Made by a program: the position numbers and the translations under genes. The notes under the pieces were generated by a model. That model was not told the origin of the DNA. It saw only the letters and a list, made by a program, of their open reading frames with translations, and searched no databases. A stretch of 64,000 nucleotides of DNA from Candidatus Cloacimonadota bacterium (GTDB taxonomy: Bacteria; Cloacimonadota; Cloacimonadia; JGIOTU-2), in contig JBNGBT010000006.1 of NCBI GenBank assembly GCA_049903315.1, positions 147,914 through 211,913 on the forward strand. The letters run 5' to 3'. This document shows, piece after piece, positions 5,578 through 50,117 of this stretch (position 1 is the stretch's first letter; each line of letters begins with the position of its first letter).

Positions 5578-5748
5578 GTTATCCTCCTGTCTTAGGTTGT
5601 CCTCCAGTCTTGAATTGATTTTTGAAAATCATAACTAAGTTGTCAAATTTATTTTTTTTACTGCTTTGAAACAAAGGTCGTGATATTTGATGGAATAGTC
5701 TAAAATATTTGACAAAGGATTGGGTGCTTAAAAATGTAGCGAACTCAC

Positions 5749-5823
5749 GGGCCAGTAACTCAGTGGTAGAGTATCGCCCTTTTAAGGCGAGAGTCGAAGG
5801 TTCGAATCCTTCCTGGCTCACCA
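5749..5823 (+). tRNA. tRNA-Lys (anticodon TTT)
   Basis: Cloverleaf gggccag...ctggctc acca; anticodon arm tcgcc-cTTTTaa-ggcga; T-loop ttcgaat; encoded CCA. Confidence 0.96.
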
Positions 5824-5843
5824 TTTGTATCAGCATTTTTTGA

Positions 5844-5918
5844 GGCCCCATCGTCTAACGGTTAGGACTCAGGATTTTCATTCCTGCAATAGGGGTTCGA
5901 TTCCCCTTGGGGTCACCA
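5844..5918 (+). tRNA. tRNA-Glu (anticodon TTC)
   Basis: ggcccca...tggggtc acca; anticodon arm cagga-ttTTCat-tcctg; T-loop ttcgatt; encoded CCA. Confidence 0.96.
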
Positions 5919-5985
5919 TTTGTGATTTCTTGCGAGAAATATCTCGTAAGTGCCTTAAAATTTGGGTAGTTAGGGGGGTTCGATA
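5910..5985. repeat. Junction A (attL-like): tRNA-Glu 3' core gggtcaccatt plus element left arm
   Basis: tcaccatttgtgatttcttgcgagaaa(t/a)atctcgtaagt recurs at 25672 and 30551. The minus strand reads YRTPLTTQILRHLRDISRKKSQMVTPRGIEPLLQE* over 5985..5878. Confidence 0.85.
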
Positions 5986-6011
5986 ACTCTTTGGGGCTTG
6001 ATACTTTTTCT

Positions 6012-6041
6012 AATAAAAAAGCCGCCACAAACGTGACGGCT
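6012..6041 (-). terminator. Intrinsic terminator of the lipoprotein gene
   Basis: Minus strand agccgtcac-gttt-gtggcggct followed by a T-tract. Confidence 0.75.
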
Positions 6042-6073
6042 CTATTCAATTTAGCAATAAAAGATGGATTGAA

Positions 6074-6700
6074 CTAATTTATTTTTGATATGGTTTTCAG
6101 TTCTGTATTATAGTAATAACCCCATTCGCCCATTGCTGCTAATGCCTGGGCTGGATCGTTGTAGAGTGGCAACAGGTTCATCTCAGAGGGATCATAGAGA
6201 GCTTCACCAACCATATTTCTCAGTAAGATGGGATAATACGTTTCATCATTGAGCCAGTCTGCTTCCCACCAGGTAACTGAGTCGAAGAAATGATCCAATA
6301 CTGCCCTATAAGCTCTTTTAGCCTGCTCTCTTGCATTTTGACTACCACCCACAGTATACAATTCATGTAGTGACATTGCACAGAAGTATTGATATTCACC
6401 TGTTGGACTTTTTGCTAGTATAGTAGCCCATAAATAAAATTGAGATTTTGCAGACGGGCATTCATCATAGAGATCCCACACATTCCCCATATACACATTT
6501 GCATCCGCATAGGGATTTTCAGGATCTGTTAAGATGTCTGTATTAGGATAGACCCCTTCATCTGCACCATATAAGGTGAGTTCATAATCCGTGGGCAGTT
6601 CAATAATATTAACAATAGTACCATTTTTTCGGTCACAAGCAGATAGGAGAACAAGGAGTATGATAACACTTACCATGATCGCTATTGATTTTATTCTCAT
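6074..6700 (-). CDS. Lipoprotein of unknown function, probable partner of the upstream hydrolase/barrel fusion
   Basis: MRIKSIAIMVSVIILLVLLSAC lipobox with aggag RBS; alternative start at 6730. Confidence 0.8.
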   Translation of the reverse strand: MRIKSIAIMVSVIILLVLLSACDRKNGTIVNIIELPTDYELTLYGADEGVYPNTDILTDPENPYADANVYMGNVWDLYDECPSAKSQFYLWATILAKSPTGEYQYFCAMSLHELYTVGGSQNAREQAKRAYRAVLDHFFDSVTWWEADWLNDETYYPILLRNMVGEALYDPSEMNLLPLYNDPAQALAAMGEWGYYYNTELKTISKIN

Positions 6701-6739
6701 TTTATCTCCTGTAAAATTTTGATTTTGCATATATTACTC

Positions 6740-9700
6740 CTAAAAATCGATTTTAAAGTACACACCGGTTTGGAATTCATAATCATTCATTTCATCACTG
6801 TTTTCATTTCCTGGTGAGTTTTCATCAAGGGTTCTGAATATAGTCTTGAAGCCTAATCTGCTTGAGAATTCTTCATTAAGGAAATTGTCGATGAGTACCG
6901 AATAATCAAACATGAATTGATAGGGGAAAGTGATGTTGAACTGTCGGTACCAGTCGTATGGTCCCCAAGCATTCTTCTTTGCATACGCAGAAATGATGTG
7001 TTTTTTATTGATCACAAATTTCGTATCAAGCGAGTAGTATTGCGGAGATTTTCGTTCAGGATTTCCTGTAGATTGCTGTTTGCCAGCTTCGATATTAGTA
7101 ATTATTTTCAGATTACGACTGGGATTCATAATGAATCTACCTTTTGCCAACCAGACATTTGCTTTTGGCAGTCCTCCGGAAAATGGAACATTAGTTTTAC
7201 CTTGCTGATAATAGAAAAGATATGCATCGGTATCAGTATCATAACGAGTGTAATTTCCACCAATACTGAACGCCAGACCAGCATCTTCCCGATAGTCACT
7301 ATCCCAAGCATAGAAATAACTTGCCGGAGTAGGATCATATGTCAAGAAGAATTCGCCTGAGGTTGCTTCTCTATTATCCAAAACTGCGAATGGATCACTA
7401 TCGCTGTTGCGTGGAGAAAGACCCGGATAGAAATTTGTTCCATTAGTGTAGGGTTCAATACTGGGATTAGGGCCGATCAGATTTTGTCTGTACAGGAACC
7501 GTGGCAAGAGCCAGAAGTTGCCAACAGGCAGCAAAAATCCACCTTCATAGACTATTTTATTACCAAGGGCTGAATAGGGCATCGTAGTATCGAATTCTCT
7601 TAATGGATTTCCAGCATTTGCAACCAATCCTGCATAGGTGAAGGATGCATCGATCAATGCTCCACCAAAGATATTATACGTTACCTTAGCTTTTATACCC
7701 TGGGTATCCTCAAATTTGATCTTATCTTCGTATATTGTGGTGTCTCCATCAACATAATAGAATTTCTCATCTAGTCTTTCGCTGCCAGAAAAGAGATAAC
7801 CAATCTCGACTTTTGTTTTTGGGATTACTTCTGTTTCCATACACAATGTCGTCTGACGTGTTGCACGTGATGTGGCTTCTGTCGCAGTTGCAGAAGCATT
7901 TGCTCTCACAAAATCCTCGGCATGTATCAAAGTATATTTGAAGAGATTGTTGCCAAAGTCATATTTTATCATAGCCTTGGGATTTGCTCCCCAATAGACT
8001 TCCGGTCCTGCTACAATAGTGAGTCCTGGCATGAATTTTTTTCCAATAAATTCTAATCCGTATGGTGCTTTTGCATTCCAGATATCCATTCCTTCCATAT
8101 CTGTTGCTTCATACATCAGCCCATAGAAGTCACCTTTATAACCCCAATGGAACCGTGGAACATGATAGAACATTGAGAGATCAAAATTCTCAGTGCTGTA
8201 ATTAGCATCAAAGCTATAGATTTCTATCCTCTCATTATCTTTTATTTCTTTAGTCGTATTGACTTCCAGACCATCATCATTGAGTTCAGTAATCACAGAG
8301 GTATAATATTCACCTCTTTTTCCATAATATTGTTCGAGTTTCTTATCAACAACGTTCCCCAAGATGTTTAGTGTAAAATTCCCCCAAATCTTACTCGTAG
8401 GTTGAAAATCGAAATCAAGAAAGAGCATTTCACCATCTGAGAAGTCAAGTCCGTTCTTTCCATTCTTTTCTATATCTCGAGATTTACCATTGAAAACCAG
8501 ATCACCTTCAAGACTTCCGCCACTTAAATGAATAGCATCATTTTTCTTTTTTTCTTCTTGCAGCAATCTTACATCACCAGTTAGAGACATTACTTTCATG
8601 TCTATATCATCTATGAATTCATTCATCGTGGTCTTATCCACTTTATATGGGTCAATGCTCCAAATATTTGAAAGGACATCATAGGCTGCACGTGGTCTTG
8701 CGGTATAGACACCATCATCATTAGGATCACCTAATGCGCAGATGCCGTACCATTCTTCGTTCATATTATTACGACCTTTAACAAAGTCAAATGAGTAACC
8801 ACCGTTACTCCATGAGGCGTGTTTATCATGCACATAGAGATTTTCTACCTGAAGATACTTCCACCATTCATCGCGCCATTCAAATATACATCCACCGATA
8901 ACATTTCCCTCTTCACCTTTCCCGTAACTTTTGTTATAAATTTCCTGCCAATTTCCCTTGATTATCTCTGCTTGTGCTTTTTGATCTTCTTGATTAGTAA
9001 GAGCGTTAAAAGCATCACTTCCAAACTCAGTTAACATAACTGGTAGATCAAGTTCTTTATCTACTCTCTCCCACATGTCGGTAAAACTAATTCCCCGATA
9101 AGAATTTACGCCCAGAATATCAAGGTCTGGACAATATTCAACAATTAGATCCAGGTATTGGATATCACCATTAACGATAGAAAACGGGTGATTATGGTCT
9201 ATTTCTTTTCCTGCATGAATGATCTCGTTGAATAAACTATACAGGGATTTTGCTTTTTCTCTATGCTGTTCACCTACTGGCAGGTCTTCAATTTCAAAAC
9301 TGGACCATTCTAGACCATAGTTGCTTTCGTTACCAAGGGCGAACATGAGTACACCTGGCGTGTCTTTATACTGTTTAACAAGTTCCAGTATATCTCGCTT
9401 TAAAGTTTGCCGAGTGAGTTCGTCAGAATAGTTTGTTCTTTCAATCCATGCTCCTCCGATATTATATCCATATCTGCCCATCAAATGATTCACGATAGTC
9501 ATGATGCCATGCTTTTCGTAGATATAGGTTATCCATTTTGGAGGAATAAGCCCGAATGAACGAATGGTGTTAATACCAGCTTTTGTCATTAAATTACACT
9601 CATAATCAAGGGTTTTCATGATTTGCTCATCAGTGTTAGCCCATAGATTATAGGCGTAATTCTCACCTTTGGGTGTGTAGCCCCACACGACACCTTTGAT

Positions 9701-9868
9701 GAAAAAGTCTTTACTATCAACTTGTAATTTCCATCCAAGATTATCATGATACGTCGTTACCTTTTCTGGTGTTGATGCATAAATGACCGTATAAATACAT
9801 AAGAAAACAACTGTCAGAAAAAAACTGATCAACCTTTTTTGTTGCGTTTCACTACTTAATTTAATCAT
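6740..9868 (-). CDS. GH2-like (clan GH-A) TIM-barrel glycosidase fused to a ~600 aa probable outer-membrane beta-barrel
   Basis: Signal peptide; GNE acid/base and TEFG nucleophile-type motifs; amphipathic strands in the C-terminal half; terminal YEFQTGVYFKIDF beta-signal. Confidence 0.75.
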   Translation of the reverse strand: MIKLSSETQQKRLISFFLTVVFLCIYTVIYASTPEKVTTYHDNLGWKLQVDSKDFFIKGVVWGYTPKGENYAYNLWANTDEQIMKTLDYECNLMTKAGINTIRSFGLIPPKWITYIYEKHGIMTIVNHLMGRYGYNIGGAWIERTNYSDELTRQTLKRDILELVKQYKDTPGVLMFALGNESNYGLEWSSFEIEDLPVGEQHREKAKSLYSLFNEIIHAGKEIDHNHPFSIVNGDIQYLDLIVEYCPDLDILGVNSYRGISFTDMWERVDKELDLPVMLTEFGSDAFNALTNQEDQKAQAEIIKGNWQEIYNKSYGKGEEGNVIGGCIFEWRDEWWKYLQVENLYVHDKHASWSNGGYSFDFVKGRNNMNEEWYGICALGDPNDDGVYTARPRAAYDVLSNIWSIDPYKVDKTTMNEFIDDIDMKVMSLTGDVRLLQEEKKKNDAIHLSGGSLEGDLVFNGKSRDIEKNGKNGLDFSDGEMLFLDFDFQPTSKIWGNFTLNILGNVVDKKLEQYYGKRGEYYTSVITELNDDGLEVNTTKEIKDNERIEIYSFDANYSTENFDLSMFYHVPRFHWGYKGDFYGLMYEATDMEGMDIWNAKAPYGLEFIGKKFMPGLTIVAGPEVYWGANPKAMIKYDFGNNLFKYTLIHAEDFVRANASATATEATSRATRQTTLCMETEVIPKTKVEIGYLFSGSERLDEKFYYVDGDTTIYEDKIKFEDTQGIKAKVTYNIFGGALIDASFTYAGLVANAGNPLREFDTTMPYSALGNKIVYEGGFLLPVGNFWLLPRFLYRQNLIGPNPSIEPYTNGTNFYPGLSPRNSDSDPFAVLDNREATSGEFFLTYDPTPASYFYAWDSDYREDAGLAFSIGGNYTRYDTDTDAYLFYYQQGKTNVPFSGGLPKANVWLAKGRFIMNPSRNLKIITNIEAGKQQSTGNPERKSPQYYSLDTKFVINKKHIISAYAKKNAWGPYDWYRQFNITFPYQFMFDYSVLIDNFLNEEFSSRLGFKTIFRTLDENSPGNENSDEMNDYEFQTGVYFKIDF

Positions 9869-9907
9869 AGTCTTTCACTCCGTAAGCTATTGCATTATTT
9901 TAAGTTG

Positions 9908-9951
9908 AATGCTATATAGCAATATTCATATCATGAAAAAAAATCTGTCAA
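9908..9951 (-). promoter_or_regulatory. Promoter (TTGACA at 9951-9946) plus palindromic operator ATTGCTATATAGCATT
   Basis: Same 16-mer and same 22-nt spacing from TTGACA as at 11365-11408. Confidence 0.8.
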
Positions 9952-10035
9952 GAAATTACAAATTTATGAAAACCTTTTGATTTTATGTGTATGTGCTGGG
10001 CTGTATATATTTGAAGAAATGCTTGGAAAACTTTA

Positions 10036-11085
10036 TCAAAAAGGGGTACAGGAATCACGCATAATTAACTGTGCTGGAAGGATTTTGTGCTCATAGTCAA
10101 GCTCATTTCCGTTAATGGAATCAATGAGCATACTGACTGCTTTTTCAGCCATAGTTCCTATTGGAGCAGCATTTGTGGTGAGTGTTGGAAAAACCTTCGA
10201 TGCAACTTCTATATCATCGAAACCAATAATGCTGATATTATTAGGAATTTGCAGACCTTTTTCTTGGATCACTTTCATTGCTCCAATAGCCATTGAATCA
10301 TTTGCGCATATTATAGCAGTGGGAGGTTTTGGTAAGGATACGAAGTAATCCCCAGCAGCTTCTCCAGATTCATAAGAGTAATCTCCTCTATAGATTAATG
10401 ATTTATCGTGTGGTGATCCGTTTGCCGATACTGCCTTTTTGTATCCGAGAAGCCTGTCCTTGGAAACGTCAGAATCCATGAGACCGGTAACAAAACCAAT
10501 GCGTTTATGCCCGAGGGATAAAAGGTATTCAGCAGATTGATAGCAGCTGTTAAAATTATCTATTGTTACAGAAGGAATAGATTTATCTGCTGCAATATTA
10601 TCAAGGAGTACGACAGGAAAATACTTTTTAACTTCTTGAATATCATCTTCAATTCTAGGAAAGCAACAGATGATGACACCATCAATCTTTTTCTGATTTT
10701 TTAGTGGGTTTAGATTATCAAAATCTGTAAACAGAGATATCGTATATCCATTCTTTCTCACAGTTTCTTCAAGTGCCTTAAAAACTAGTGAATAATATGG
10801 GCTGGAGACACCTTGTTTAATGCCTTTATCCAAGAAAAAACCGATATTCCGGGTTACTTTTGGGCTCATTTTTCTACGGCTTACAAATGTTCCTTTGGTT
10901 GTGAGTTTATGTAAAATACCTTCCTCAACCAACTCATTCACAGCCTTGCGCACCGTCATGTAGGATGCGTTAAGTTCCTTTGCAAGAACTCTTTCTCCTG
11001 GAATTTTTTCAGTATAGTTTCCATTCTGAATATCTTCTTTAATCTTATCCTTTATATTCACGTATTTTAGAGTAGGTTTGCTCAT
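10036..11085 (-). CDS. GntR-HTH + LacI-type sugar-binding repressor (AraR-like architecture)
   Basis: KIPGERVLAKELNASYMTVRKAV...KGTFV HTH; VTIDNF, LGHKRIGF, ANDSMAIG, SIIGFDD, PTLTT motifs. Confidence 0.92.
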   Translation of the reverse strand: MSKPTLKYVNIKDKIKEDIQNGNYTEKIPGERVLAKELNASYMTVRKAVNELVEEGILHKLTTKGTFVSRRKMSPKVTRNIGFFLDKGIKQGVSSPYYSLVFKALEETVRKNGYTISLFTDFDNLNPLKNQKKIDGVIICCFPRIEDDIQEVKKYFPVVLLDNIAADKSIPSVTIDNFNSCYQSAEYLLSLGHKRIGFVTGLMDSDVSKDRLLGYKKAVSANGSPHDKSLIYRGDYSYESGEAAGDYFVSLPKPPTAIICANDSMAIGAMKVIQEKGLQIPNNISIIGFDDIEVASKVFPTLTTNAAPIGTMAEKAVSMLIDSINGNELDYEHKILPAQLIMRDSCTPF

Positions 11086-11364
11086 CGAGATCCTTATATT
11101 CTTATTTATTAATAATATTATTTATTATATTTGATTCATTAATAATATAGCAGAAGAAAATTCCACGGCTGATATTATAGTGAAATAATTATCATTGCTA
11201 TAGATCATATGGATACTAAAAAAGAATTTCAAATATAATTTAGTCAAGTAAACAATAAATAAATGTTTTTGATAAATATGCTATTATATCTATAGATATT
11301 GGATGCCAATTGATTGTTTGTAAGGGAACGATGAAGATAATTTTTTAAGTTTTTCTAAAAAAAA

Positions 11365-11408
11365 TTGACAAAAGAATTTGAAATTAATAGAAATTGCTAT
11401 ATAGCATT
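11365..11408 (+). promoter_or_regulatory. Promoter (TTGACA) plus operator ATTGCTATATAGCATT of the GH16-GH3 operon
   Basis: TTGACA 11365-11370; operator 11393-11408, the exact reverse complement of 9908-9923. Confidence 0.8.
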
Positions 11409-11452
11409 GATAGCTCGAAATAAAAAAATACTTCAATAAAGGGAGTTTAGCA

Positions 11453-14434
11453 ATGAGAAATATAAGTTTTGTTTTGATTGCTGTGTGTTTAATTATACTT
11501 TTTAATGGATGCGATAGGATCACTGATCCTGACCCGATACCAGATCCTACACCTTCAGCCGATTATGAATTAGTATGGTCGGATGAGTTCGATCAGAGGG
11601 CAACCACTCTTGATGAAAGTAAATGGAATTACGATCTTGGCTATGGTAATGAAGGGTGGGGAAATGATGAATGGCAACTGTATACTGACGATGTAGAAAA
11701 TATTAAAGTAGAAAATGGCAATATGGTTATTACTGCGGTCTGGGATTCAACACAATTTCTCGAACCTGGAAAACGAGACGGTTCCATCACTTCTGCTCGT
11801 GTTAATACAAAAAACAAATTTTCTATGAAATATGGAAAAATTCAGGCACGAATAAAACCTCCTACGGGTAATGGGATGTGGCCTGCGTTCTGGATGCTTG
11901 GAAATGATTATGATGTTGTTGGCTGGCCCCATTGTGGAGAAATAGATATCATGGAAATAAGTCCGTTTATCTACAATGACAAAACTGCTATGTTTACTTT
12001 ACATTGGTGGGATGATGTGGACTCGACTAATGCATCTTATGGTACTACAAAACTATTCAATGTCTCATTATCAGATGATTATCATATCTTCGAGGTTGAA
12101 TGGGATCAGCAAAGGATCATCGGCAAAGTTGATGGAATCATGTATTTCGTAAAAGTGCTTGAACAGGGAACGATGGATGAGTTTTTCCGAAAATTCTTTA
12201 TTATATTAAACATTGCTGTTGGTGGATCCCTGGGTGGACCTCCAGATGCAACCACTGAGTGGCCTCAACATATGTATGTAGATTGGATCAGAGCTTATCA
12301 AAAAGCTGAGAAACCAATTGAAACCTTTGGTATCTTTACTGATCTTACTCCTGTTGATGATGGTTTGACGATCGGTGTAGATGCTGAAATATATGTGTGG
12401 GAAAATACCCTTACAACAGGGACGATACCACCTTATGAAGGGGATAATGTGATATCCTGGGCAACAACCGGAGCTGGATGGTTTGGTGGTGGAATAAGCT
12501 CTAATCTGCCAGCAGATCTATCCCTTTTCGAAGGTGGAAATGTTAAATTTATGATAAAGATTCCTGCAGATGTAAATTTTAAGATCGGGATCAATGACTT
12601 GCAAGGTATAGAGAATTACGTAAACTTCCCTGCCAATCAAACAACATACGGTTTAGTGAGAGATGGTGAATGGGGACGAGCAACAATTCCAGTAGAAGAC
12701 ATTAAGGGTGGGGTTGATCTTGAAATGCTGAAATATGAATTCATCATTCTTGAGCAAAACGGTGCTCAATGTGAATTTGCACTGGATGACATCTATTGGG
12801 ATGGTGGTGGTACCGCAATCAGCAACGTTCATTTTGATGAAGATACCTACACAACCGATGCAACAAATGCAACTATTTCTGTGCTTGATGAAGGAGCTGC
12901 TGATTCGCTTGTTTTCGTTACTGTTGATAACGGGACAGACACCATTAGCATAAACATCACGCTCAATGGAAGCGGTAATGGAACAGGAACATTGAATTTT
13001 GGTCCCACAAGTGATGAAACTGATACCATCGAAATACAAGATGGTGATACACTTACCGTCACCTACTTTGATGCGCAGGGAAATGTAAAAACAGATACTG
13101 CAAGTATAGTGACCGGAGAGATCGAAACATTCGGAATATTCACTGACCTTACTCCTGTGGATGCTGGTATACACGTAGGTGAAAATGCGGAAATATATGT
13201 GTGGGAAGGAACGCTTACAGCTGGAACTATCCCACCATATGAAGGAGATAATGTTATCTCTTGGGAAACCACAGGATTGGGATGGTTCGGTGGAGGAATT
13301 GCATCATATCAGCCAGTTGATCTGTCTGGTTTTGAACCGGGATATATTAAATTCATGATTAAAATTCCGGCTAATGTCACTTTTAAGATCGGTATCAATG
13401 ATACACAAGGACATGAAAACTATGTCGAATTCCCGGCAAATCAAACAACTTATAATCTTATAAGAAATGGAGAATGGGGACAGGCTGCAATACCGGTAGT
13501 TGATATCAAAGGTAGCGTTAATCTGGAAATGTTAAATTATGAGTTTATGATCTTAGAACAAAACGGAACTCAATGTGCATTTGGAATAGATGACATCTAC
13601 TGGGATAAAACTGGAGTACCTTTTAGCAATGTAAGTTTTAATTCCGCGAGTTACTTGATTGATGATACTGGAGCCATGATAACAGTTATCGATGAATTAG
13701 CGGTAAACAGTCTTGTTACAGTTACGGTGGATAATGGCACTGAAACGATCTCAGTAGATGTTCAGCTTGATGCTGCGGGTGAAGGTTCTTCAAACATAAA
13801 TTTTGGTCCCACAAATGATGACACCGATACTATTGCGATAACTGAAGGTGGAACAATTACGGTTACGTATATTGACAACAATGGTATTACAATAACTGAT
13901 TCTGCTGACATTGAAAACGGATCTGGTTCAGAAACTGCAGGAATTTACTCAGAATCACACACTGATCCGATGATTCCATATTCTCAGATCATCAACAGTG
14001 CTGACTGGAGTGGAAATTCTACCGTGCCCGATGAACAAGGTACGGCAGTAACACCAGTAGATGGGACATACGTTCTTTCTGTAAATTTCGAAGCAGGTGG
14101 AGCTACATATGGTGGTATATCTTTTGATTTCGGAAGTGCTGATATCTCATCTTATGAAACCCTGATCTTAAGTATTGATAAATCAGCTATGTCTGGTCTT
14201 GTACATTTAGGTGTTAAATTGGAGGATAACTCAGCGGGTAATACTGAGGTGAACATCTCATCATACACACCGACGATCAAGGGGAACTGGGCAACATATG
14301 AGATTCCATTATCACATTTCACAGTTCCTGATCTTACAGATCTTAAATACCTTGGACTCTGGAACCCCAAAGATAGTGGAAATAATCTGCTTTTCAGCAC
14401 GCTCTATTTCGATGATATGTATTTAGAACAATAA
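11453..14434 (+). CDS. GH16 endo-beta-1,3-glucanase (laminarinase) lipoprotein with duplicated CBM-like/Ig modules
   Basis: Lipobox FNGC; LVWSDEF, WPAFWMLG, catalytic EIDIME; 268-aa tandem duplication starting at 12320 and 13124. Confidence 0.92.
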   Translation: MRNISFVLIAVCLIILFNGCDRITDPDPIPDPTPSADYELVWSDEFDQRATTLDESKWNYDLGYGNEGWGNDEWQLYTDDVENIKVENGNMVITAVWDSTQFLEPGKRDGSITSARVNTKNKFSMKYGKIQARIKPPTGNGMWPAFWMLGNDYDVVGWPHCGEIDIMEISPFIYNDKTAMFTLHWWDDVDSTNASYGTTKLFNVSLSDDYHIFEVEWDQQRIIGKVDGIMYFVKVLEQGTMDEFFRKFFIILNIAVGGSLGGPPDATTEWPQHMYVDWIRAYQKAEKPIETFGIFTDLTPVDDGLTIGVDAEIYVWENTLTTGTIPPYEGDNVISWATTGAGWFGGGISSNLPADLSLFEGGNVKFMIKIPADVNFKIGINDLQGIENYVNFPANQTTYGLVRDGEWGRATIPVEDIKGGVDLEMLKYEFIILEQNGAQCEFALDDIYWDGGGTAISNVHFDEDTYTTDATNATISVLDEGAADSLVFVTVDNGTDTISINITLNGSGNGTGTLNFGPTSDETDTIEIQDGDTLTVTYFDAQGNVKTDTASIVTGEIETFGIFTDLTPVDAGIHVGENAEIYVWEGTLTAGTIPPYEGDNVISWETTGLGWFGGGIASYQPVDLSGFEPGYIKFMIKIPANVTFKIGINDTQGHENYVEFPANQTTYNLIRNGEWGQAAIPVVDIKGSVNLEMLNYEFMILEQNGTQCAFGIDDIYWDKTGVPFSNVSFNSASYLIDDTGAMITVIDELAVNSLVTVTVDNGTETISVDVQLDAAGEGSSNINFGPTNDDTDTIAITEGGTITVTYIDNNGITITDSADIENGSGSETAGIYSESHTDPMIPYSQIINSADWSGNSTVPDEQGTAVTPVDGTYVLSVNFEAGGATYGGISFDFGSADISSYETLILSIDKSAMSGLVHLGVKLEDNSAGNTEVNISSYTPTIKGNWATYEIPLSHFTVPDLTDLKYLGLWNPKDSGNNLLFSTLYFDDMYLEQ

Positions 14435-14451
14435 TAAAAAAGGATAAATTG

Positions 14452-15918: not shown

Positions 15919-15928
15919 GATATATTAG

Positions 15929-17605: not shown

Positions 17606-17614
17606 AGAGTTACT

Positions 17615-18730: not shown

Positions 18731-18846
18731 AAAGTAATACTGAATTAGAAAATCAAAATAATTCACAAATGGAATCTTTGTTTGGTGGAGACCCAATCAA
18801 GATTTCAATAACAAGAAAATATGACAAACCCTAAAAAGGAGAAAAA

Positions 18847-20196: not shown

Positions 20197-20207
20197 TAAT
20201 CAATTTT

Positions 20208-20242
20208 CAGCCGGTACATATCTTTGTGCCGGCTGTTTTTTT
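20208..20242 (+). terminator. Intrinsic terminator or attenuating hairpin inside the operon
   Basis: cagccggtac...gtgccggctg followed by T7. Confidence 0.75.
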
Positions 20243-20297
20243 AGTATTGGGTTTATTCTCAAAGTATAAGGACGAAATCTTGAATCCTGAGATTGAT

Positions 20298-23588: not shown

Positions 23589-23604
23589 AAATGGAGAATG
23601 TATA

Positions 23605-25536
23605 ATGAAAGATATTGAAGTTAGAATTTCTGAGTTATTAGTGAAAATGACTCTTGATCAGAAAGTAGGACAGATCGTCCAGCCGGAAAGGCAATTTGTT
23701 ACCCCGCAAGAAGTAAAGAAATATCATATTGGTTCAGTTCTCAGTGGTGGCGGATCGGTTCCCGGTGATAACAAGCCGGATGATTGGATAAAAATGAATG
23801 ATGCTTACTGGGAAGCTTCCATGGAAGAAGACGAAGAGCATCTGGCAATTCCGATCATCTATGGAGTGGATGCAATCCATGGAAACACAAACGTGAAAGG
23901 GGCAGTTGTTTTCCCGCATAATATCGGATTAGGTGCAGCTAATGATCCTGACTTGCTGGAAAGAATTGCTGCTGTTACTGCCAAGGAGATCGCAGCAACG
24001 GGCGTTGAATGGACTTTTGCTCCAACACTTGCAGTGGCTCGTAACGATCATTGGGGTAGAACGTATGAAAGCTATTCCGAAGACCCTAAAATTGTCTGCG
24101 ATTACGCCCCCAGATTTGTTAAGGGACTGCAAGGAAATTATGGGGAAGAAAACGTGATCGCCTGTGCTAAACACTGGGTTGGTGACGGAGCAACACTGCA
24201 TGGAATTGATCAGGGAGATATGTGTATCAGTGAACATGAATTACGTAGAATTCATGTTCCTCCTTACAAAGCTGCGATAGATGCTGGTGTGCTGACTGTG
24301 ATGGTTTCGTTGAGCAGCTGGTATGGAGAGAAGTGCCATGGTCACAAATTTCTGATTACTGATCTTCTGAAAAATGAACTGGGATTTAATGGCTTTGTGA
24401 TCTCCGATTGGGATGGTATCGATTATCTAGATAAGAGTTATGAAGAGTCTGCTGTAATGGCTATGAATGCAGGTATGGATATGTTCATGATCACCGGAAA
24501 ATGGAAAGAATTTATCCAACACATGAAAGCAAATATTCATAACGGCCACATTCCCATGGAACGTCTTGATGATGCCGTGCGCAGAATTTTGCGCGTAAAA
24601 TTCTTGTTTGGTATGTTTGAAAAACCGCGTCCTACAGAAAGAACACTATCGCTGGATCATTCTTGTTTTGGCTCACTGGAACATCGCGAAGTCGCAAGAG
24701 AAGCAGTTCGTAAATCTCTGGTCATGCTCAAGAATGATGAAGATATACTACCACTAAATAAAAATGCTCGAATTTTAGTTGCTGGGAAAAATGCTCACAA
24801 CCGCGGACATCAATGTGGTGGATTTACCGTAGCTTGGCAAGGTGTTGATGATAATGACGAGTCAAAAGACAAAACATATATCATGACAGATTCTGAAAAA
24901 GAGAAACCGCGAGATAAAAAGATAAGTAACGGAATATCTCATAGATCATCAATCATCGGCGGATCTTCGATTTGGGAAGGTATTCAAGCTGTTGCTCCAA
25001 ATGCTCATTTGAGTATTGATGGCTCAGATGCTGATCCTGCTAAATATGATGTAGCAATTGTTTGCATCGGGGAAGTCCCTTATGCAGAAATGCTTGGTGA
25101 TATTCGTGTTGAGGGATTGAGAAAAGGTTTAAAGATCAGCAAAGGTTCAAGTATTGATGACACGCTACCGGGTGATGAAATTCCTATTGTGAAAAAAGGA
25201 CCGTATGGAACTCATCTCTATTTGCATGAACTTCATCCCGAGGATATTGCAACTATTAAAAATATTACCAGCAAAGGAATTCCGGTTGTCACGATTATGA
25301 TCTGCGGTCGTCCGTTAGTTATTGAACAAGAGCTTGAAGAATCGAAAGCATTTGTCATTGCCTGGTTCCCAGGTTCCGAAGGGCAGGGAGTGGCTGATGT
25401 TATCTTCGGTGATTATGATTTCCAAGGCAAACTGAGTTTTTCTTTATCGCGTTTCGATCAGGAAAACTGGAACCTAGGCGATGAAAATTATAATCCGCTT
25501 TTCCCGTATGGATATGGATTGAAATATGATAGATAA
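23605..25536 (+). CDS. GH3 beta-glucosidase / exo-beta-glucanase, cytoplasmic
   Basis: YGVDAIHG, FPHNIGLGA, WGRTYE, AKHWVGDG, nucleophile SDW motifs. Confidence 0.93.
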   Translation: MKDIEVRISELLVKMTLDQKVGQIVQPERQFVTPQEVKKYHIGSVLSGGGSVPGDNKPDDWIKMNDAYWEASMEEDEEHLAIPIIYGVDAIHGNTNVKGAVVFPHNIGLGAANDPDLLERIAAVTAKEIAATGVEWTFAPTLAVARNDHWGRTYESYSEDPKIVCDYAPRFVKGLQGNYGEENVIACAKHWVGDGATLHGIDQGDMCISEHELRRIHVPPYKAAIDAGVLTVMVSLSSWYGEKCHGHKFLITDLLKNELGFNGFVISDWDGIDYLDKSYEESAVMAMNAGMDMFMITGKWKEFIQHMKANIHNGHIPMERLDDAVRRILRVKFLFGMFEKPRPTERTLSLDHSCFGSLEHREVAREAVRKSLVMLKNDEDILPLNKNARILVAGKNAHNRGHQCGGFTVAWQGVDDNDESKDKTYIMTDSEKEKPRDKKISNGISHRSSIIGGSSIWEGIQAVAPNAHLSIDGSDADPAKYDVAIVCIGEVPYAEMLGDIRVEGLRKGLKISKGSSIDDTLPGDEIPIVKKGPYGTHLYLHELHPEDIATIKNITSKGIPVVTIMICGRPLVIEQELEESKAFVIAWFPGSEGQGVADVIFGDYDFQGKLSFSLSRFDQENWNLGDENYNPLFPYGYGLKYDR

Positions 25537-25594
25537 TATCGATAGATAAAAAATCAACTTGTGGATTTCAAACAAGATTAATTGTTCTTTGAAT

Positions 25595-25756
25595 TTATAG
25601 TACATCTTTCAACACCTCATTCATTACCACGAGTTCTTTGTAGATTTCTATGTAATCTTCGAGGTTAAGGATCACCATTTGTGATTTCTTGCGAGAAAAA
25701 TCTCGTAAGTAATTTATGATAAGTAAATTAAGGGTGTTCGATAAAGAGCACCCTTT
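25595..25756. repeat. Junction B (attP-like): right arm + ggatcaccatt core + left arm
   Basis: 25608-25756 is identical to 30487-30635 (149 bp); its left arm matches 5913-5951. Confidence 0.9.
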
Positions 25757-25808
25757 CTCTTATCCTAGCAATACAAAATCTATAACTGACACTATATCAG
25801 TGAATTGC

Positions 25809-25830
25809 GGGGTTCGATTCCCCTTGGGTC
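25809..25830 (+). repeat. Isolated copy of the tRNA-Glu T-arm/acceptor 3' segment
   Basis: ggggttcgattccccttgggtc versus tRNA ggggttcgattccccttggggtc (one G missing); a more decayed copy lies at about 30689-30712. Confidence 0.75.
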
Positions 25831-26323
25831 TATTAGGCAATTCTGATATTTTAATGAATAATTTACTTCTTATTTGAGTTGTGGATCCGAGGATGGGTTT
25901 TTATATACAGAAAACATAATAAAAAAAATTGACACCCATTACACAATTCCAATTAATCTAGTTCAAAGGAAAAAATATGATGGCAACGAACGATAATTGG
26001 AAGAATGTATTGGGAGGACATACCCCCCCCATTTTATTTTAGTAACTAACGCATATTATGCAAGTTACCACAAACCGGCATATTTTAACAAGGAAAAACA
26101 TAGCAAAAATACAATATTACTATTTCTCGGGAAAAATAAATTACTTCATTCCGACCTTACTATTCCGGTTCCCGGGAATAGTGGGGTGCAAGGAATATGA
26201 GTACTGAATCGGCTAAGGTTGGATTGAATATGATGTTGTGGGATATGTATTATGGGTCGTTCTTTTAAAAGAAAATGTGTTAATTATTAGTTCATTAAAT
26301 GACAATGAGACAAAAAAGGAGAA

Positions 26324-28155
26324 ATGATGAAAAAGTATATTTCACTATTAGTGGTACTTATAATATTATTATTCTGTAGCAACTTATTTGCAGGTTATCT
26401 TTATGTCGAAATATGGAATGCTACAGGATATGAGATGAATGATTGTTGTATTTATCTTAACATCTCAGAAGAAGTTAGTGGAGCAACATGGCAGCCTGGG
26501 TTTACACCTTATGTGTTTGAAGTTGATGATCCCTCCAGTGTATATGTATGGGCTTTTTGTTATGCTGATTGCTATGGTTGGGAATTTTATGCGAATGGAG
26601 ATGATTACTCTTACTGGAATCCGAATACACAGCATTGGGAAGCTTCTGTAGAAGTTAATGGTGTGTATAATCCTTCACAGATAAATTTTACTATTACTGT
26701 TAACAATGAAATCGATGAAGCATCCAATTGTAGTTTGATCAGAAATCCAAACACTAATCCGGAAACTCTCTTTGTAAACCAAACGATTTCTACTGGGACA
26801 ACAACCTATACTGAATATGAGATATATGTAGATGATGAACTAATGGTTGAGGGTGACGTTGATGGATTTTATTCCGGACAGGTATACGATGTAAGTGATT
26901 TGGAAGTTGTAGATTATAATTTTAACTCTTCAACATATGTTTTGGATATCTATGCAGAGTTAGACTTAGAATATGATGATACTCCTCCTGATTATGACTA
27001 CAATGTAACCAGTTTATCTTCATCAGGTTGGAACTGGGTCTCTTTCCCTGTTCTTGATCCCGATTATGACGATCCTATAGACTATGTTCTGGAACCAATA
27101 CTCGATGATTTGGATGAAGTTGTTCATGATCAGGATTACATATATTGGACTGGTACTAGTTGGCAAAACAATATTGGAGATTTTCAAAGTATCGATGGAT
27201 ATAAGATACAGATGGACGATGATGCTGAACTTGAAGTTGCGGGATGGGTTGAAGATCCTGATACAGAAATACCCCTCTACGAAGAGGAGGAAAATTGGAT
27301 AGGATATTTTATCCCATACAGCCATCACCTTCATGGGCATTTGGAGATGCCTGGCAATATCTAAACTGTATTCAAGCAGAAGATTGGAGTATGTACAAAA
27401 AGAACGGGATATGGTATGGACCTGCCGGTGTCACTATAGATTATGGAGATGGTTATGTAGTATGGGTTGACGATGATTGTACTCTTGAATGGGTTTGTTT
27501 TGGTCAAATGAAAAGCTATGAGAAACCTGAATCACAATATTTCTCTTATGAGGAGAAGGCAAGTTATGAAGCAATCGATATTACAGGCATTGATGAAAGT
27601 GTGTTAGAAATAGGTGTTTTTGAGAACGATATTTGCGTCGGAGCTTCAGTTGTGGAAAATGGTTTTGCACAAATTCTTGCATATACTGAGAATGTAAATA
27701 AAAAAGGTTCTGAACTTACTTTTCAAATAGTGAGTGGAAAAGGAGATAAGCAAGAGATATGCAGCTTTTATGTGTATGATTTTGATAAAAATACCTACAT
27801 AAAAAAGAATCTCATCTCCGGCAATCAGAAGTACTCACTCGTTAAATTGAGCAAGGGAGAGGGAAACCAAACACCTATCGAGCTTTCACTCTCACAGAAT
27901 ATTCCGAATCCCTTCTCTTCTCATACTCTTATATCATATTCAATTCCGAAAGAATCTCATGTGAAGATATCAGTTTACAATTTAAAGGGCCAAAGAGTGA
28001 AAACTCTCGTTAATGAAATATTATCAGTTGGTAGCTATTCTACAGTATGGAATGGCACTGATGATAAAGGTATCACATTACCAAACGGTGTTTATTTCTA
28101 TAAACTTGATAATGACAATACATCAATCAGTAAAAAAGTAATAATAATGCATTAA
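26324..28155 (+). pseudogene. Secreted acidic CTD protein split by a single-base deletion at about 27324 (or a sequencing error)
   Basis: ORF1 has the signal peptide and reads ...ENWIGYFIPYS; ORF2 continues SPSWAFGD... to the NIPNPF CTD; agc ca- tca cct needs one extra base. Confidence 0.8.
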
Positions 28156-28170
28156 TTAGCATATATGAGA

Positions 28171-28205
28171 ACAAGACCGTATTGAAAAATACAGTACGGT
28201 CTTGT
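28171..28205 (+). terminator. Strong intergenic hairpin (terminator or mRNA stabiliser)
   Basis: acaagaccgtattg-7nt-cagtacggtcttgt; no clear U-tract. Confidence 0.6.
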
Positions 28206-28232
28206 AACTCTTACTAATATTTCTGGAGTCAT

Positions 28233-30458
28233 ATGCAAAAATTTTTAATTCAATTAATTCTCACAATATTATTTGTTTGTTTTGCATCATTTTTATATTC
28301 TCATATAATCATCGTCGATATCAATGGAACAGGAAATTACACGAGCATACAGGAAGGAATAGAAAATTCATCAAGCGGTGACACCGTTTTGGTACATCCC
28401 GGAACATATTATGAGAATATAAATTATAATGGAAAGAACATTACGGTAGCAAGTTTATATATCAATACACAAATTGATTCATTTGTAAAAAATACTATAA
28501 TTGACGGTAACCAGAATGGGAGTGTGGTAACCTTCGAAAGTGGAGAAGATACCTCTGCAGTTCTTTGTGGATTTACTCTTCAAAATGGAAGTGGTACATA
28601 TAATTTACATAATATTAGAGGTGGAGGAATTTTTTGTATCAACTCTAATCCTAAGTTATTAAGTTGTAATATCCAAAATAATAATGCCGAGTTCGGTGGT
28701 GGTATTCATTGCAGATATTCAATGATACATATCTCAGGAACAACGATCCGTTATAACCATTCGATATATGACGGCGGAGGGATATATTTAAGAGACGAGT
28801 CTAATATCATTTTCGATAGTATTAACCGATCAAACATTTATTTAAATTACGCAGGATGCGGTTGTGATATAGGTTCTTATGAAATAAGCGGTATAGAAGT
28901 AATAGTAGATACGTTTACCGTTATTGAACCAGATGATTACAATACATATCCTTATGAAAGCTATGATTTTGATATTTATAGTAATAAGATAGAAATGATA
29001 AATTGTGACCTATATATTAGTCCTTTGGGTAATAACACAAGTAGTGGATTTTCACCTGATGATCCATTGAAAACAATATCCTATGCGATGACAAAGATAA
29101 AGTCGGATAGCATAAGCTGTAATACAATATATCTATCAAATGGGATATATTCACCAGCTACGAATGAGGATTTATTCCCGATTAATTGTAAAGATTATGT
29201 TTCTATTCAAGGGGAGGATAAGGATTTAACTATTCTTGATGGGAGTAATGAATGGTTTTTACTATATTCCTATGAAGACAATGATTATTCTATAAAAGAT
29301 ATTACATTACAAAATGGTTTTAATGATATAACAGGAGGGGGTATGAGTATTCATTATGGACAAGATATATTTTTGAAGGATATAAATTTTATTAACAATA
29401 AAGCTGAAGTGGGTGGTGGAGGATTGAATATATTTGAAACACAGGGGGTATTTGAAAATTTAACAATTCGTAACAATTCGTCTGATGGAGGAGGTGGTCT
29501 CTTTGTTTCTAATAATTCAAATCCTGTATTTATTAATTGTATTATCGATAGAAATAATACAATTACTCCAGGTTGGGGATATGCAGGAGGAGTAAGTTGC
29601 ACAGTTGAGTGTAATCCAGTATTTATTAACACGGCAATAACAAATAATGAATCAGATGAAACAAGCGGATTAAGTGCTTCTGGTGGTGCTGGGGATTATT
29701 GCGATCCAATTCTAATAAATTGTACTATTTGCGATAATTCAGAAAACCCATATGGAACTATTTATCAAGGAGATGGATCTCATATTAGTTTAATAAATTG
29801 CATATTAAGGAATTATTCAGATGATGAGGTTGTATTCTCTACCAATCCACCAGCAAAAAAAGTCACTGTATCGTACTCAAATATTAAAGGTGGTATTGAT
29901 GCTATAAACACGAATAACAATGGTAGCATTATCTGGGGAGACGGCAATATAGACGAAGATCCGCTGTTTGTTGGCGGGGATCCCTTCAGTTATGAGTTAA
30001 CACCAGAATCTCCCTGCATCGATGCCGGCACACCGGACACAACAGGACTGCATTTACCTGCAACGGACTTAGCAGGTAATCCGAGAATATTCAATGGAAG
30101 AATAGATATCGGTGCATATGAGTGTCAGGATACAGTAAGCGTGGATGAACCGGACACGAGTTTTATTCATAATTTGTATTTATTCCAGAATACCCCGAAT
30201 CCTTTTACGAATGAGACGGAAATATTGTTCATCACTGCGGATTACGAAAGAGTAGAAGATTACACACTTTCCATATACAATACCAAAGGACAGCTTGTCC
30301 GCAGGTTCGATGGTAGAACTAATAATTTTTGGGTAAAGACAAAGATTGTCTGGGACGGAACGGATGAACGGGGCAAACACGTAGCACCCGGAACATATTT
30401 ATATAAATTAGAATACAACGGACATGCAGTGGTGAGGAAGATGGTGAAGGTGAGATAG
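28233..30458 (+). CDS. Secreted parallel beta-helix (pectin-lyase-like/DUF1565, choice-of-anchor Q-like) protein with CTD
   Basis: SIQEGI...GDTVLVHPGTYYENI; GGGI repeats; DPLKTISYA; SPCIDAG..DLAGNPRI..IDIGAYE; NTPNPF CTD. Confidence 0.82.
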   Translation: MQKFLIQLILTILFVCFASFLYSHIIIVDINGTGNYTSIQEGIENSSSGDTVLVHPGTYYENINYNGKNITVASLYINTQIDSFVKNTIIDGNQNGSVVTFESGEDTSAVLCGFTLQNGSGTYNLHNIRGGGIFCINSNPKLLSCNIQNNNAEFGGGIHCRYSMIHISGTTIRYNHSIYDGGGIYLRDESNIIFDSINRSNIYLNYAGCGCDIGSYEISGIEVIVDTFTVIEPDDYNTYPYESYDFDIYSNKIEMINCDLYISPLGNNTSSGFSPDDPLKTISYAMTKIKSDSISCNTIYLSNGIYSPATNEDLFPINCKDYVSIQGEDKDLTILDGSNEWFLLYSYEDNDYSIKDITLQNGFNDITGGGMSIHYGQDIFLKDINFINNKAEVGGGGLNIFETQGVFENLTIRNNSSDGGGGLFVSNNSNPVFINCIIDRNNTITPGWGYAGGVSCTVECNPVFINTAITNNESDETSGLSASGGAGDYCDPILINCTICDNSENPYGTIYQGDGSHISLINCILRNYSDDEVVFSTNPPAKKVTVSYSNIKGGIDAINTNNNGSIIWGDGNIDEDPLFVGGDPFSYELTPESPCIDAGTPDTTGLHLPATDLAGNPRIFNGRIDIGAYECQDTVSVDEPDTSFIHNLYLFQNTPNPFTNETEILFITADYERVEDYTLSIYNTKGQLVRRFDGRTNNFWVKTKIVWDGTDERGKHVAPGTYLYKLEYNGHAVVRKMVKVR

Positions 30459-30473
30459 GAACCGAGAAACAAA

Positions 30474-30635
30474 TCACAGTATGTCCTTCAACACCTCATT
30501 CATTACCACGAGTTCTTTGTAGATTTCTATGTAATCTTCGAGGTTAAGGATCACCATTTGTGATTTCTTGCGAGAAAAATCTCGTAAGTAATTTATGATA
30601 AGTAAATTAAGGGTGTTCGATAAAGAGCACCCTTT
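30474..30635. repeat. Junction C (attP-like), copy of junction B
   Basis: 149 bp identical to B; weaker homology to B continues to about 30712. Confidence 0.9.
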
Positions 30636-30795
30636 TTTATTTTCCATTAAATACAAAGTTTATGACTAATCCTATATCAATGAGTTGCAGGATTCGTTTC
30701 TCATTTGGTTTCTTCAAAGTTTTCTTTTAAAAAAATAAAAAAGCCGCCACAATCGCGACAGCTTTATTCACTTTAGCAAATTAAGATGGATTGAA

Positions 30796-30921
30796 CTAAT
30801 TTATTTTTGAGACGGTTTTCAATTCTGTATTATAATAATATCCCCATTCGCCTATTGCTGCTAATGCCTGTGCTGGATCGTTGTAGAGTGGCAAAAGATT
30901 CATTTCAGAAGAATCATATAA
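30796..30921 (-). pseudogene. 3'-terminal 41-codon relic of a homolog of the 6074-6700 lipoprotein
   Basis: LYDSSEMNLLPLYNDPAQALAAIGEWGYYYNTELKTVSKIN* versus LYDPSEMNLLPLYNDPAQALAAMGEWGYYYNTELKTISKIN*; the terminator and spacer at 30735-30795 are also homologous. Confidence 0.9.
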
Positions 30922-31013
30922 GTGTTGATAAATTGCATTATCAATATATTAAAATATTTGACATGCGAAATGCGAATGTAAATTTCAGAAAAAATATTAA
31001 TCGTGGAGTAAAA

Positions 31014-31532
31014 ATGAATAAAAATTTATTGATATGTATATTATTCATAATATTTGTATCATGTCTAAACGCCACAGATTTGGATACTGGTTTTGAAAAA
31101 GGAAACATTCCGGGCTCATGGAAGGTTGTTAACAATAATGGTGATAGTTATCAATGGGAAGCGTATAAAGCCACGATCGGTTCACATTCAGGCGATTGGA
31201 TAGTGAGAGTACAAACTCATTCAACGGCACTTGATGACTGGTTGATAACCCCCAGACTGAAGCCGGTTGAGGGTCATAATATTTTATCTTTTTATTATAT
31301 GTCATATAGTGATAGTTACCCTGAAGATTTTAATGTAAAATTATCTACAACCGGTAATACGATCAGTGATTTCACTGTAAACTTAGGTTCTGTGTCAAAT
31401 GCACCGATACAATGGACAAAATTTGAATATGATCTTAGTGCGTATAATGGAAAATCAATATATATAGCAATTCAGTGTACTTCTGATACAGGCTGGTTCC
31501 TCTATGTTGATGATATAAAGATCGACGAATAA
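31014..31532 (+). CDS. Secreted single cleaved-adhesin (choice-of-anchor J) domain protein, no CTD
   Basis: ggag RBS; signal peptide; GFEKG.IP.SW, DDWLITP, DLSAYNGKSIYIAI, LYVDDI motifs. Confidence 0.82.
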   Translation: MNKNLLICILFIIFVSCLNATDLDTGFEKGNIPGSWKVVNNNGDSYQWEAYKATIGSHSGDWIVRVQTHSTALDDWLITPRLKPVEGHNILSFYYMSYSDSYPEDFNVKLSTTGNTISDFTVNLGSVSNAPIQWTKFEYDLSAYNGKSIYIAIQCTSDTGWFLYVDDIKIDE

Positions 31533-31552
31533 TCGTAACTTAGTCGAAGTAC

Positions 31553-31619
31553 TAACCTCATTCAAACCGCAAGCTCTTTATAAATCTCAATGCAATCTTG
31601 GAGGTTAAGGGTCACCATT
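31553..31619. repeat. Junction D (attR-like): diverged right arm + gggtcaccatt core
   Basis: aacctcattc...aatcttggaggttaagggtcaccatt aligns to the B/C right arm and is followed directly by a terminator. Confidence 0.85.
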
Positions 31620-31622
31620 ATT

Positions 31623-31647
31623 AAGCCGTCACAACCGTGGCGGTTTT
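31623..31647 (+). terminator. Probable original, displaced tRNA-Lys/Glu terminator
   Basis: aagccgtcac-aacc-gtggcggttt a few nt after the last att core. Confidence 0.7.
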
Positions 31648-31839
31648 GTTATTTATGCAGACTCTCGAGAGTATAAATCTTATAAAAAGATTCCCAAATT
31701 CCATGGCAAATAAATTTTTCTTGACAGAAGATAGCCTGAAAAATAGAAAAAAAACACTCTTTGCTACACATCTTTTTGATTCCTCTTGAAGTTCATTCCA
31801 TGAAATATTAATATAATGTGAAAAATAAAAGGAGTCAAT

Positions 31840-48010: not shown

Positions 48011-48193
48011 GTTTTCTCCTTGTTTTGAAAAGAAAATAATATCATATTGAAAAATGTCAATTAAACTATTTCAATGTTTTTTTACTCAGAAAAATCATGA
48101 AAGCAATATGGCGCGATAGAATAGTCTAAAAAAGAATATAATACTTGACACCATTATATGAAAGACTAGCAGGTGGATTCGAAAGGAGACCAC

Positions 48194-48778: not shown

Positions 48779-48780
48779 TA

Positions 48781-50109: not shown

Positions 50110-50117
50110 GGAGAAAG

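Follow-up and report, generated by a model that had tools for sequence, protein, structure and literature searches.

How did three units of cargo come to stand in tandem behind a single tRNA gene, with no recombinase gene among them, and can such units still move? The question is raised by a window of 64,000 nucleotides (the whole stretch of DNA analysed here) from a Candidatus Cloacimonadota bacterium, assembly GCA_049903315.1, in which the 3' end of a tRNA-Glu(TTC) gene recurs at four junctions, named A to D. A preliminary description, made from the sequence alone, took the array for an integron-like platform of cassettes that entered by successive site-specific integrations and are mobilised in trans. 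The array was almost certainly built by a family of large serine recombinases (LSRs) that act at the tRNA end and whose own gene is split on integration, and its recombinase-less units probably still travel as passengers.

Junctions and arms of the array

The core GGRTCACCATT occurs exactly four times in the window, starting at 5910, 25669, 30548, and 31609; its mean in shuffled windows was 0.07, and none of 100 shuffles reached four. The four junctions sharing the tRNA 3' end, as first described, are therefore borne out, as are the unit sizes given earlier as about 19.8, 4.9, and 1.1 kb: units 1, 2, and 3 measure 19,759 bp, 4,879 bp, and 1,061 bp, respectively. Junction A consists of tRNA-Glu followed by a left arm, B and C of right arm, core, and left arm, and D of right arm, core, and a terminator-like hairpin. 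An Rfam scan matched two tRNAs and nothing else. The arms were compared with P0032, a full-length LSR of 495 aa with Resolvase, Recombinase, and Zn ribbon domains. The parts of the attachment (att) sites are as follows, with the strand given where one was assigned.

5749..5823, + strand: tRNA-Lys(TTT), upstream partner of the target tRNA; a Lys-Glu pair also precedes intact LSR elements in genomes G211 and G185
5844..5918, + strand: tRNA-Glu(TTC), integration target, with the crossover probably within its terminal ACCA
5881..5988, - strand: junction A (attL), the last 36 LSR codons reading into the tRNA antisense strand, SYRTP...MVTPRGIEPLLQE; 34/36 identical to P0032 residues 460-495
5989..6042: further LSR relic past an internal deletion, then a terminator-like hairpin at the end of the glucan unit; similar to the distal end of junction C
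25595..25678, - strand: right arm of B, a 27-codon LSR tail, MVILNLEDYIEIYKELVVMNEVLKDVL, followed by a stop
25678..25866: left arm of B, a frameshifted LSR 3' relic, a terminator-like hairpin, and an exact 20-bp copy of the tRNA-Glu T-arm at 25809-25828
30474..30557, - strand: right arm of C, a 27-codon LSR tail and stop
30557..30733: left arm of C, a frameshifted LSR 3' relic; joined straight to tRNA-Glu in metagenome contig L078
25608..25756 and 30487..30635, + strand: exact 149-bp repeat common to B and C, inside wider homology of 232 bp at 89%
31555..31618, - strand: right arm of D (attR), a decayed LSR tail broken after codon 18
31620..31650, + strand: terminator-like hairpin of the type found directly after tRNA-Glu at empty sites (G001, G006, G007, G009)

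P0032 was reached from a longer relic in the same-genus genome G008, which phmmer matched to 31 proteins; LSR domains were found in eight of the nine scanned, and one match led to P0032. The near identity of arm A to its C-terminus supports a serine recombinase as the enzyme, as had been proposed. The final ~14 residues of this P0032-like end are the tRNA read backwards, and the LSR remnant in the window units comprises only the last 36-60 codons of the gene. The right-arm tail continues the left-arm frame across the core, and in protein P0013 the LSR FPEG...YRTP segment is fused in frame to a right-arm tail. As judged from these alignments, the 3' end of the LSR gene spans its own attP. Two split-gene features of tRNA-targeting LSR elements are present, namely an LSR 3' end overlapping attL and a displaced C-terminal tail at attR; an intact recombinase gene on the element, the feature of autonomy, is absent from the window units.

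The coding character of the right arm was assessed in 13 arms (15 rows minus the chance matches L046_10032 and L050_6798), with L077 and L081, which repeat the L042 junction, counted once. Right arms also occur in named Cloacimonadota records, one titled Ca. Celaenobacter; three such records were left out of all counts. The stop falls at codon 28 in nine arms, later in one, and at codon 24 in one, and the tails of junction D and L078 are broken after codon 18. Across the 11 in-frame arms, variable columns numbered 11, 7, and 22 at codon positions 1, 2, and 3, and 31 synonymous and 26 non-synonymous alleles gave a ratio of 0.22, compared with 0.45-3.2 in the five other frames (binomial p 2e-8, a value overstated since the copies are kin). 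Identity falls to 0.32 past the stop codon. Because homology ends there, the length of the arm is set by the reading frame of the recombinase, indicating that the arms are relics of a gene and no purpose-built minimal att sites. The ~70-80 bp first allotted to each arm was too short, since homology between B and C extends over the full 232 bp listed above, T-arm copy included. Bases 5' of ACCA differ among right arms and bases 3' of it differ among all junctions; the crossover is best placed within the terminal ACCA of tRNA-Glu.

The 20-bp T-arm copy coincides with a T-arm look-alike in the LSR gene (PKSLSN codons). With an exact or near-exact match in B, G002, G003, and L080a, it marks one sub-lineage of left ends; it possibly derives from mis-recombination with the tRNA. 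Over 209 bp, the left arm of B shares 87% identity with the arm of G003 that lies nearest the tRNA.

No recombinase, integrase, relaxase, or phage structural family was matched when the 14 unit open reading frames (ORFs) were compared with Pfam and PHROGs, and no recombinase ORF, hence no integron integrase beside the array, was found among 30 proteins scanned from 1921 to 54410. The earlier statement that the array lacks recombinase, relaxase, and phage genes thus holds for the unit ORFs, but the arms themselves are pieces of a recombinase gene. This bears on whether the junctions could be sites of a tyrosine recombinase of the phage integrase or Xer type. The genome has six PF00589 matches, and a tRNA-Glu 3' fragment of 45 bp in G008 suggests that such integrases may use this tRNA; yet LSR coding sequence makes up both arms, no more than ~9 bp of core is duplicated, and the ends of intact LSR elements look the same, so that we give this explanation practically no weight. 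The fragment itself (L054, G008:C11, ~10006-10120) is the 3' half of tRNA-Glu with an LSR left arm, stands before a 2707-aa gene, and follows a resistance-nodulation-division (RND) efflux operon that in the window spans 47285-54410; it suggests a second kind of integrase at this tRNA.

The site in relatives and its recombinase

When 60 relatives were searched with junction B, along the lines recommended in the preliminary description, strong arm matches were obtained in four same-genus genomes. The site is empty in 4 of the 10 same-genus genomes (G001, G006, G007, G009), with tRNA-Glu followed directly by a terminator. The predicted empty site therefore exists, although in no relative is tRNA-Glu followed by exactly the window's sequence from 31620. 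Arms are present in five others (G002, G003, G004, G005, G008), and the site was not found in G010, which is 54% complete. G002 carries a cargo-free unit of 344 bp made up of left arm, spacer, and right arm. In G003 a 5.8-kb secreted-protein unit comes first and a glucan block second, the reverse of the window; its contig ends within the glucan block, and the right end of the block was not found. G008, which is 6% contaminated, holds several relics, including a 2.2-kb unit at tRNA-Glu(CTC).

A metagenome scan gave six loci (L076-L081), two of them repeating a G008 junction. In L078 the tRNA is joined at the core to a C-type left arm and unit 3 stands alone (92.8% over 971 bp); L079 shows a glucan block ending in right arm, core, and terminator; and at L080 there are three junctions, whose units (2.4 and 2.6 kb) hold other cargo, and, further on within the retrieved stretch, an inverted glucan block. 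Differing content and order of units, as expected earlier, were thus seen in G002, G003, L078, and L080, and the arm identity, empty sites, and intact elements described below support successive site-specific integrations at the tRNA 3' end. One layout does not fit simple tandem integration: in L042 (G008:C63, 21-14950), tRNA-Glu still has its native terminator behind it, and a junction of right arm, core, and left arm appears only past 14.8 kb of cargo.

We also considered whether the B/C repeat or the order of units could be an artefact of assembly, unit 2 being, for example, a free circle. The assembly is in 71 contigs, and no listed contig bridges the 149-bp repeat. Contigs from runs X3 and X9, both possibly the source of the assembly, end at 25637 and restart at 25727 and 30606 with distinct flanks, as a two-copy 149-bp repeat predicts (the breaks presumably reflect a word length of ~31), and G003 independently has the C-type arrangement of unit-2 end, junction, and glucan end, at 83.5% over 1056 bp. 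We regard an artefact as extremely unlikely. The one joint, from 25710 to 30734, and the loose ends at 25809 and 30918 are explained by the junction-A contig falling on similar sequence. Cover by runs X18 and X14 was patchy, and depth was not used as evidence.

The window's genome is 96% complete. Its sole LSR is directed into tRNA-His and shares 26-29% identity with P0032, so the intact cognate enzyme that the preliminary description hoped to find there did not appear. This LSR (L038, C6:126-2982) is intact, 543 aa long, and overlaps tRNA-His in the same manner, beside a divergent tyrosine-recombinase-like ORF at the contig start. The tRNA-Glu(CTC) of the genome is empty, and a crude scan of its other tRNAs for repeated 3' ends, using an unspecific motif flag, gave no second multi-junction array.

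In a class-wide search of 232 genomes, 27 matched P0032 at E <= 1e-10. Two of the four best P0032-type loci, in G211 and G185, end in tRNA-Glu; the remaining two run into tRNA-His and tRNA-Arg. The G211 element (7 kb) and the G185 element (8.9 kb) both consist of tRNA-Lys-Glu, a 499-aa LSR ending in the tRNA antisense strand, a MerR-type helix-turn-helix (HTH) protein, cargo, and a small ORF, and their far end comprises the 9-bp core, a terminator, and a coding tail like the right arm of the window. Besides the MerR-type HTH, the G211 element encodes a methylase and the G185 element a 1500-aa secreted protein and a terS-like ORF (PHROGs, E 6.5e-12); no replication gene was recognised in the latter. 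Directly after the attR of the G211 element lies a 1055-aa ORF (L115, G211:C108, 16748-19915), whose N-terminus we take to be Cas9-like by its motif. Word searches with the 125-aa relic and likewise with P0013 gave no longer homologue, both weak negatives; P0032 peptide patterns gave no relative in genome-contig or viral-contig collections, and the right-arm pattern had no match in viral contigs.

These findings bear on the notion of a dedicated integron-like platform, in which att-only cassettes kept by selection are always mobilised in trans by a recombinase elsewhere in the genome. In its favour are arrays whose units, 2.4-5.8 kb long, hold one or two genes for secreted proteins (window unit 2, G003, L080), as well as the cargo-free unit of G002. 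However, the genome's only LSR targets tRNA-His, its tRNA-Glu(CTC) is empty, and the intact LSRs of the family sit on their own elements at the tRNA with no separate platform. Such a platform is highly improbable; the integron likeness holds as an analogy, but there is no resident integrase.

Probable movement of units without a recombinase

The array was almost certainly built as follows. LSR elements insert at the CCA end of tRNA-Glu, with the LSR gene on the reverse strand at the left edge of the element and its 3' end across attP. In the circular form the gene closes with the 27-residue tail from the right arm; integration cuts it, leaving a body that reads into the tRNA antisense strand at attL and a tail that stays at the far end, at attR. 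A newcomer inserts at the tRNA again and shoves older units outward, which explains why internal junctions have the order right arm, core, left arm. From the three window units the LSR body and every further mobility gene are gone. These units would resemble cis-mobilizable elements (CIMEs). Either an autonomous element that landed beside them, and has since disappeared, would have carried them in cis, or a helper of this kind would have integrated them in trans; homologous recombination would also mix the arms. The array here appears frozen until a helper arrives. That recombinase-less units still travel in this way, as CIME-like passengers of a transient helper in cis or in trans, appears probable from the sequence comparisons. 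Cis hitch-hiking, trans integration, and homologous recombination fit these data alike, and the mobilisation in trans proposed earlier could not be singled out.

The broken left ends speak for this conclusion. The same kind of left end, 1 nt short and with a hairpin, was found in 6 of 15 left arms (B, C, both of G003, L078, and L080c), that is, in four genomes or contigs with different cargo. When junction B is aligned with the G003 arms, identity is 94% in the first 66 nt and 83-84% in the 87 nt that follow. Between the genome of the window (G000) and G003, by comparison, identity was 41% at four-fold sites of alaS, 78% over alaS, and 58% in upstream intergenic DNA; gap columns were excluded throughout, which flatters all of these figures. 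Because the frameshifted end is 94% identical where alaS silent sites are only 41%, the recombinase-less ends either moved or were kept by selection.

The same data can be read as grounded relics, each unit being an autonomous LSR element decayed in place, with the sharing and order of units produced by homologous recombination, gene conversion, and tandem duplication with deletion. Junctions B and C are identical over 149 bp within more divergent homology, and the arms are mosaic, A having an in-frame proximal part and a C-type distal end. Relics of every length occur (G005, G008, L080b), unit 3 is a deletion remnant, the unit-2 gene lies in two frames, and cargo divergence equals host divergence. 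This explanation would, however, require pseudogene ends that code for nothing to be transferred across species between hosts at 78% alaS identity. Moreover, in G003 and L078 the frameshifted ends occupy the newest position, next to the tRNA, yet they are internal in the window and in L080, and the frame is kept in 11 of 13 right arms, where even singleton alleles remain synonymous-biased (9 synonymous against 10 non-synonymous, ratio 0.28). Decay in place alone is therefore rather unlikely. As for arm A, its internal deletion probably arose via microhomology. A recent LSR end may have been joined there, over a short stretch of microhomology, to the distal end of a glucan unit of the C type; the arrival of that unit with an autonomous element, followed by deletion of the element, would leave such a structure.

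Several observations weigh against continued travel of the units. The glucan genes of G000 and G003 are 41-44% identical at four-fold sites, as diverged as alaS, and the cargo therefore bears no sign of recent transfer. The unit-2 gene common to G003 is only 55% identical overall, with similarity concentrated near the junction, which fits homologous recombination. Junction C and G003_B share 68% in the distal block, and the perfect B/C repeat looks like gene conversion. Much of the right-arm divergence may have arisen in autonomous elements rather than in recombinase-less lineages, because of the synonymous bias. One nucleotide is likewise missing from the arm of G005 and from two arms of G008, where the surrounding sequence differs, which indicates that such deletions can recur, and in G005 a left arm was found without a right arm, as for a dead relic. 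No cognate LSR was found in the window's genome or in 20 other family genomes searched. Nor did we see a circle, an excision junction, or strain-level loss, as the preliminary description would lead one to look for; contigs of four runs over 24000-33000 (with junction A outside) contain no unit-skipping joint, although such contigs cannot show rare forms.

A more radical version of mobility is that these are actively shuffled integron-like cassettes of glucan-use and surface-protein genes in this genus whose right-arm tails are under protein-level selection, each tail, on landing before a resident element, completing the recombinase of that element with the missing C-terminal helix. We consider this unlikely. 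If it were true, a cassette would itself activate the helper that moves it, and the direction in which the enzyme works, or how active it is, would depend on the tail.

Cargo, known systems, and significance

The cargo features of the three units are as follows.

6074..25536: unit 1 cargo, a beta-glucan use cluster (Pfam scan)
25922..26281, + strand: promoter/leader of ~360 bp with a poly-C tract (C8) at 26023-26030; part of the cargo, outside the att system
26324..30458, + strand: unit 2 cargo, a secreted-protein gene in two overlapping frames (346 and 286 aa) and a 741-aa secreted protein, each with a terminal sorting domain like those of FlgD and the type IX secretion system (T9SS)
30734..30918: remnant of a second glucan unit, namely a terminator and the 3' end of the gene at 6074-6730; 185 bp, 89% identical to 6012-6196
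30807..31532, + strand: unit 3 cargo, an ORF with a cleaved-adhesin/MAM domain

Unit 1 encodes a 218-aa protein without a Pfam match, a 1042-aa protein, a GntR/LacI-type regulator, GH16, a major facilitator superfamily (MFS) sugar transporter, GH30, a GH17-like protein, a secreted protein, a GH161 phosphorylase (E 2e-224), and GH3. The 1042-aa protein (6740-9868) has a weak GH2-like N-terminal match and a long unannotated C-terminal part, and is present in 3 of 20 other family genomes. G007 carries the glucan cluster at an unrelated locus, with no arms beside it, which marks the cluster as captured host cargo. The view that the units hold only cargo is right as to the glucan regulon and the secreted proteins, but unit 3 opens with the 185-bp copy of the left end of unit 1.

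The frames of the first unit-2 gene overlap at 27295-27364, and a related contig of run X14 has one more letter at 27323. The ~360-bp leader, considered as a miniature inverted-repeat transposable element (MITE), was rejected as such: it is the promoter/leader of secreted-protein genes and has no Rfam match. It precedes four such genes (in the window and on contigs C3, C69, and C44 of the genome) with a short leader frame and poly-C lengths of 8, 12, 10, and 11, and the tract is a candidate slipped-strand switch. In L078 (~5440-6380), ~490 bp of the adhesin domain are duplicated in tandem within unit 3, which there measures 1548 bp compared with 1061 bp in the window. Just past junction D, a 662-aa secreted protein has seven ~153-bp repeats at 31998-33046.

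The closest described system is that of the Dehalococcoides ssrA islands with the serine integrase DsiB (McMurdie et al. 2011, PMC3146451), as far as the available passages of that paper describe them: islands with metabolic cargo stand in tandem behind one RNA gene, DsiB (~500 aa) is on the reverse strand with its 3' end overlapping attL and takes its stop codon from outside the island, and 15 islands without the integration module are proposed to be cis-mobilisable. Its authors already propose there that only the circle, or a position behind a neighbouring island, gives a complete integrase. The window is alike in its tandem units, its reverse-strand serine recombinase overlapping attL, and its module-less units. 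The target here, however, is the CCA end of tRNA-Glu with a ~9-bp core, whereas theirs is the T-loop of the transfer-messenger RNA (tmRNA) with a 20-bp repeat. The six-gene module described in those passages (DsiB, DsiA, RecF-like, ParB, Mom, and a large ORF) is absent from the window, and the autonomous relatives carry an LSR, a MerR-HTH protein, and a terS-like ORF. All window units are recombinase-less, and neither a codon-level test of the tail nor cross-species sharing of broken ends appears in those passages of PMC3146451. No exact 9-bp repeat of the tmRNA end was found downstream of the tmRNA in the window's genome.

CIMEs, as defined in the part of ICEberg 2.0 (PMC6323972) available to us, lack integration and transfer genes, keep attL/attR-like ends, occur in tandem, and are proposed to move with an adjacent autonomous element. 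At the sequence level the window units are alike in having no integration and no transfer genes and in keeping attL/attR ends. The CIME helpers described there are integrative and conjugative elements (ICEs), whereas the two autonomous elements in G211 and G185 show no relaxase or conjugation gene. Prochlorococcus tycheposons (bioRxiv 10.1101/2020.12.28.424599), in the sections available, use tyrosine recombinases in 910 of 937 cases and LSRs in a minority; some resemble phage-inducible chromosomal islands (PICIs), and many have replication genes. They share with the present system cargo-bearing integrase elements at tRNAs, outward displacement by newcomers, and integrase remnants. They differ in that replication genes were not seen here. 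A set of integrase and excisionase is absent from the window; the G185 element has an LSR, a MerR-HTH protein, and a terS-like ORF.

Integron arrays likewise stack cargo units between recombination sites, with entry at one end, and depend on IntI, a tyrosine enzyme. The likeness ends with the stacking and one-end entry: the window array has no IntI, its units reach 20 kb and have promoters of their own, its enzyme is of the serine type, and it is not an integron. Searches of the openly accessible literature found no such arrays in this phylum and no system closer than those compared here; in the available text of the Ace Lake Cloacimonadota paper (PMC8542988), the terms 'genomic island' and 'recombinase' do not occur.

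Island finding with TIGER/Islander needs an integrase gene, according to the accessible part of PMC12424338, and a hot spot of this kind is therefore missed by integrase-requiring finders. The passages at hand of the 2014 Islander paper (PMC4383910) state that targeting of tRNA genes by serine integrases was not known. The present work provides a set of parts for the enzyme, comprising a full-length LSR, its attB, natural attP-type junctions, and two alternative C-termini, and bears on the 2011 proposal of an integrase complete only in the circle. On the sequences compared, the locus offers unusually clear evidence for a displaced protein tail and for cross-species reshuffling, in a system that appears to work like the ssrA islands without being a member of them. 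In it one sees the way in which a lineage of uncultured anaerobes acquires and exchanges entire catabolic clusters, here a beta-glucan system of 20 kb, along with surface proteins, all at a single hot spot.

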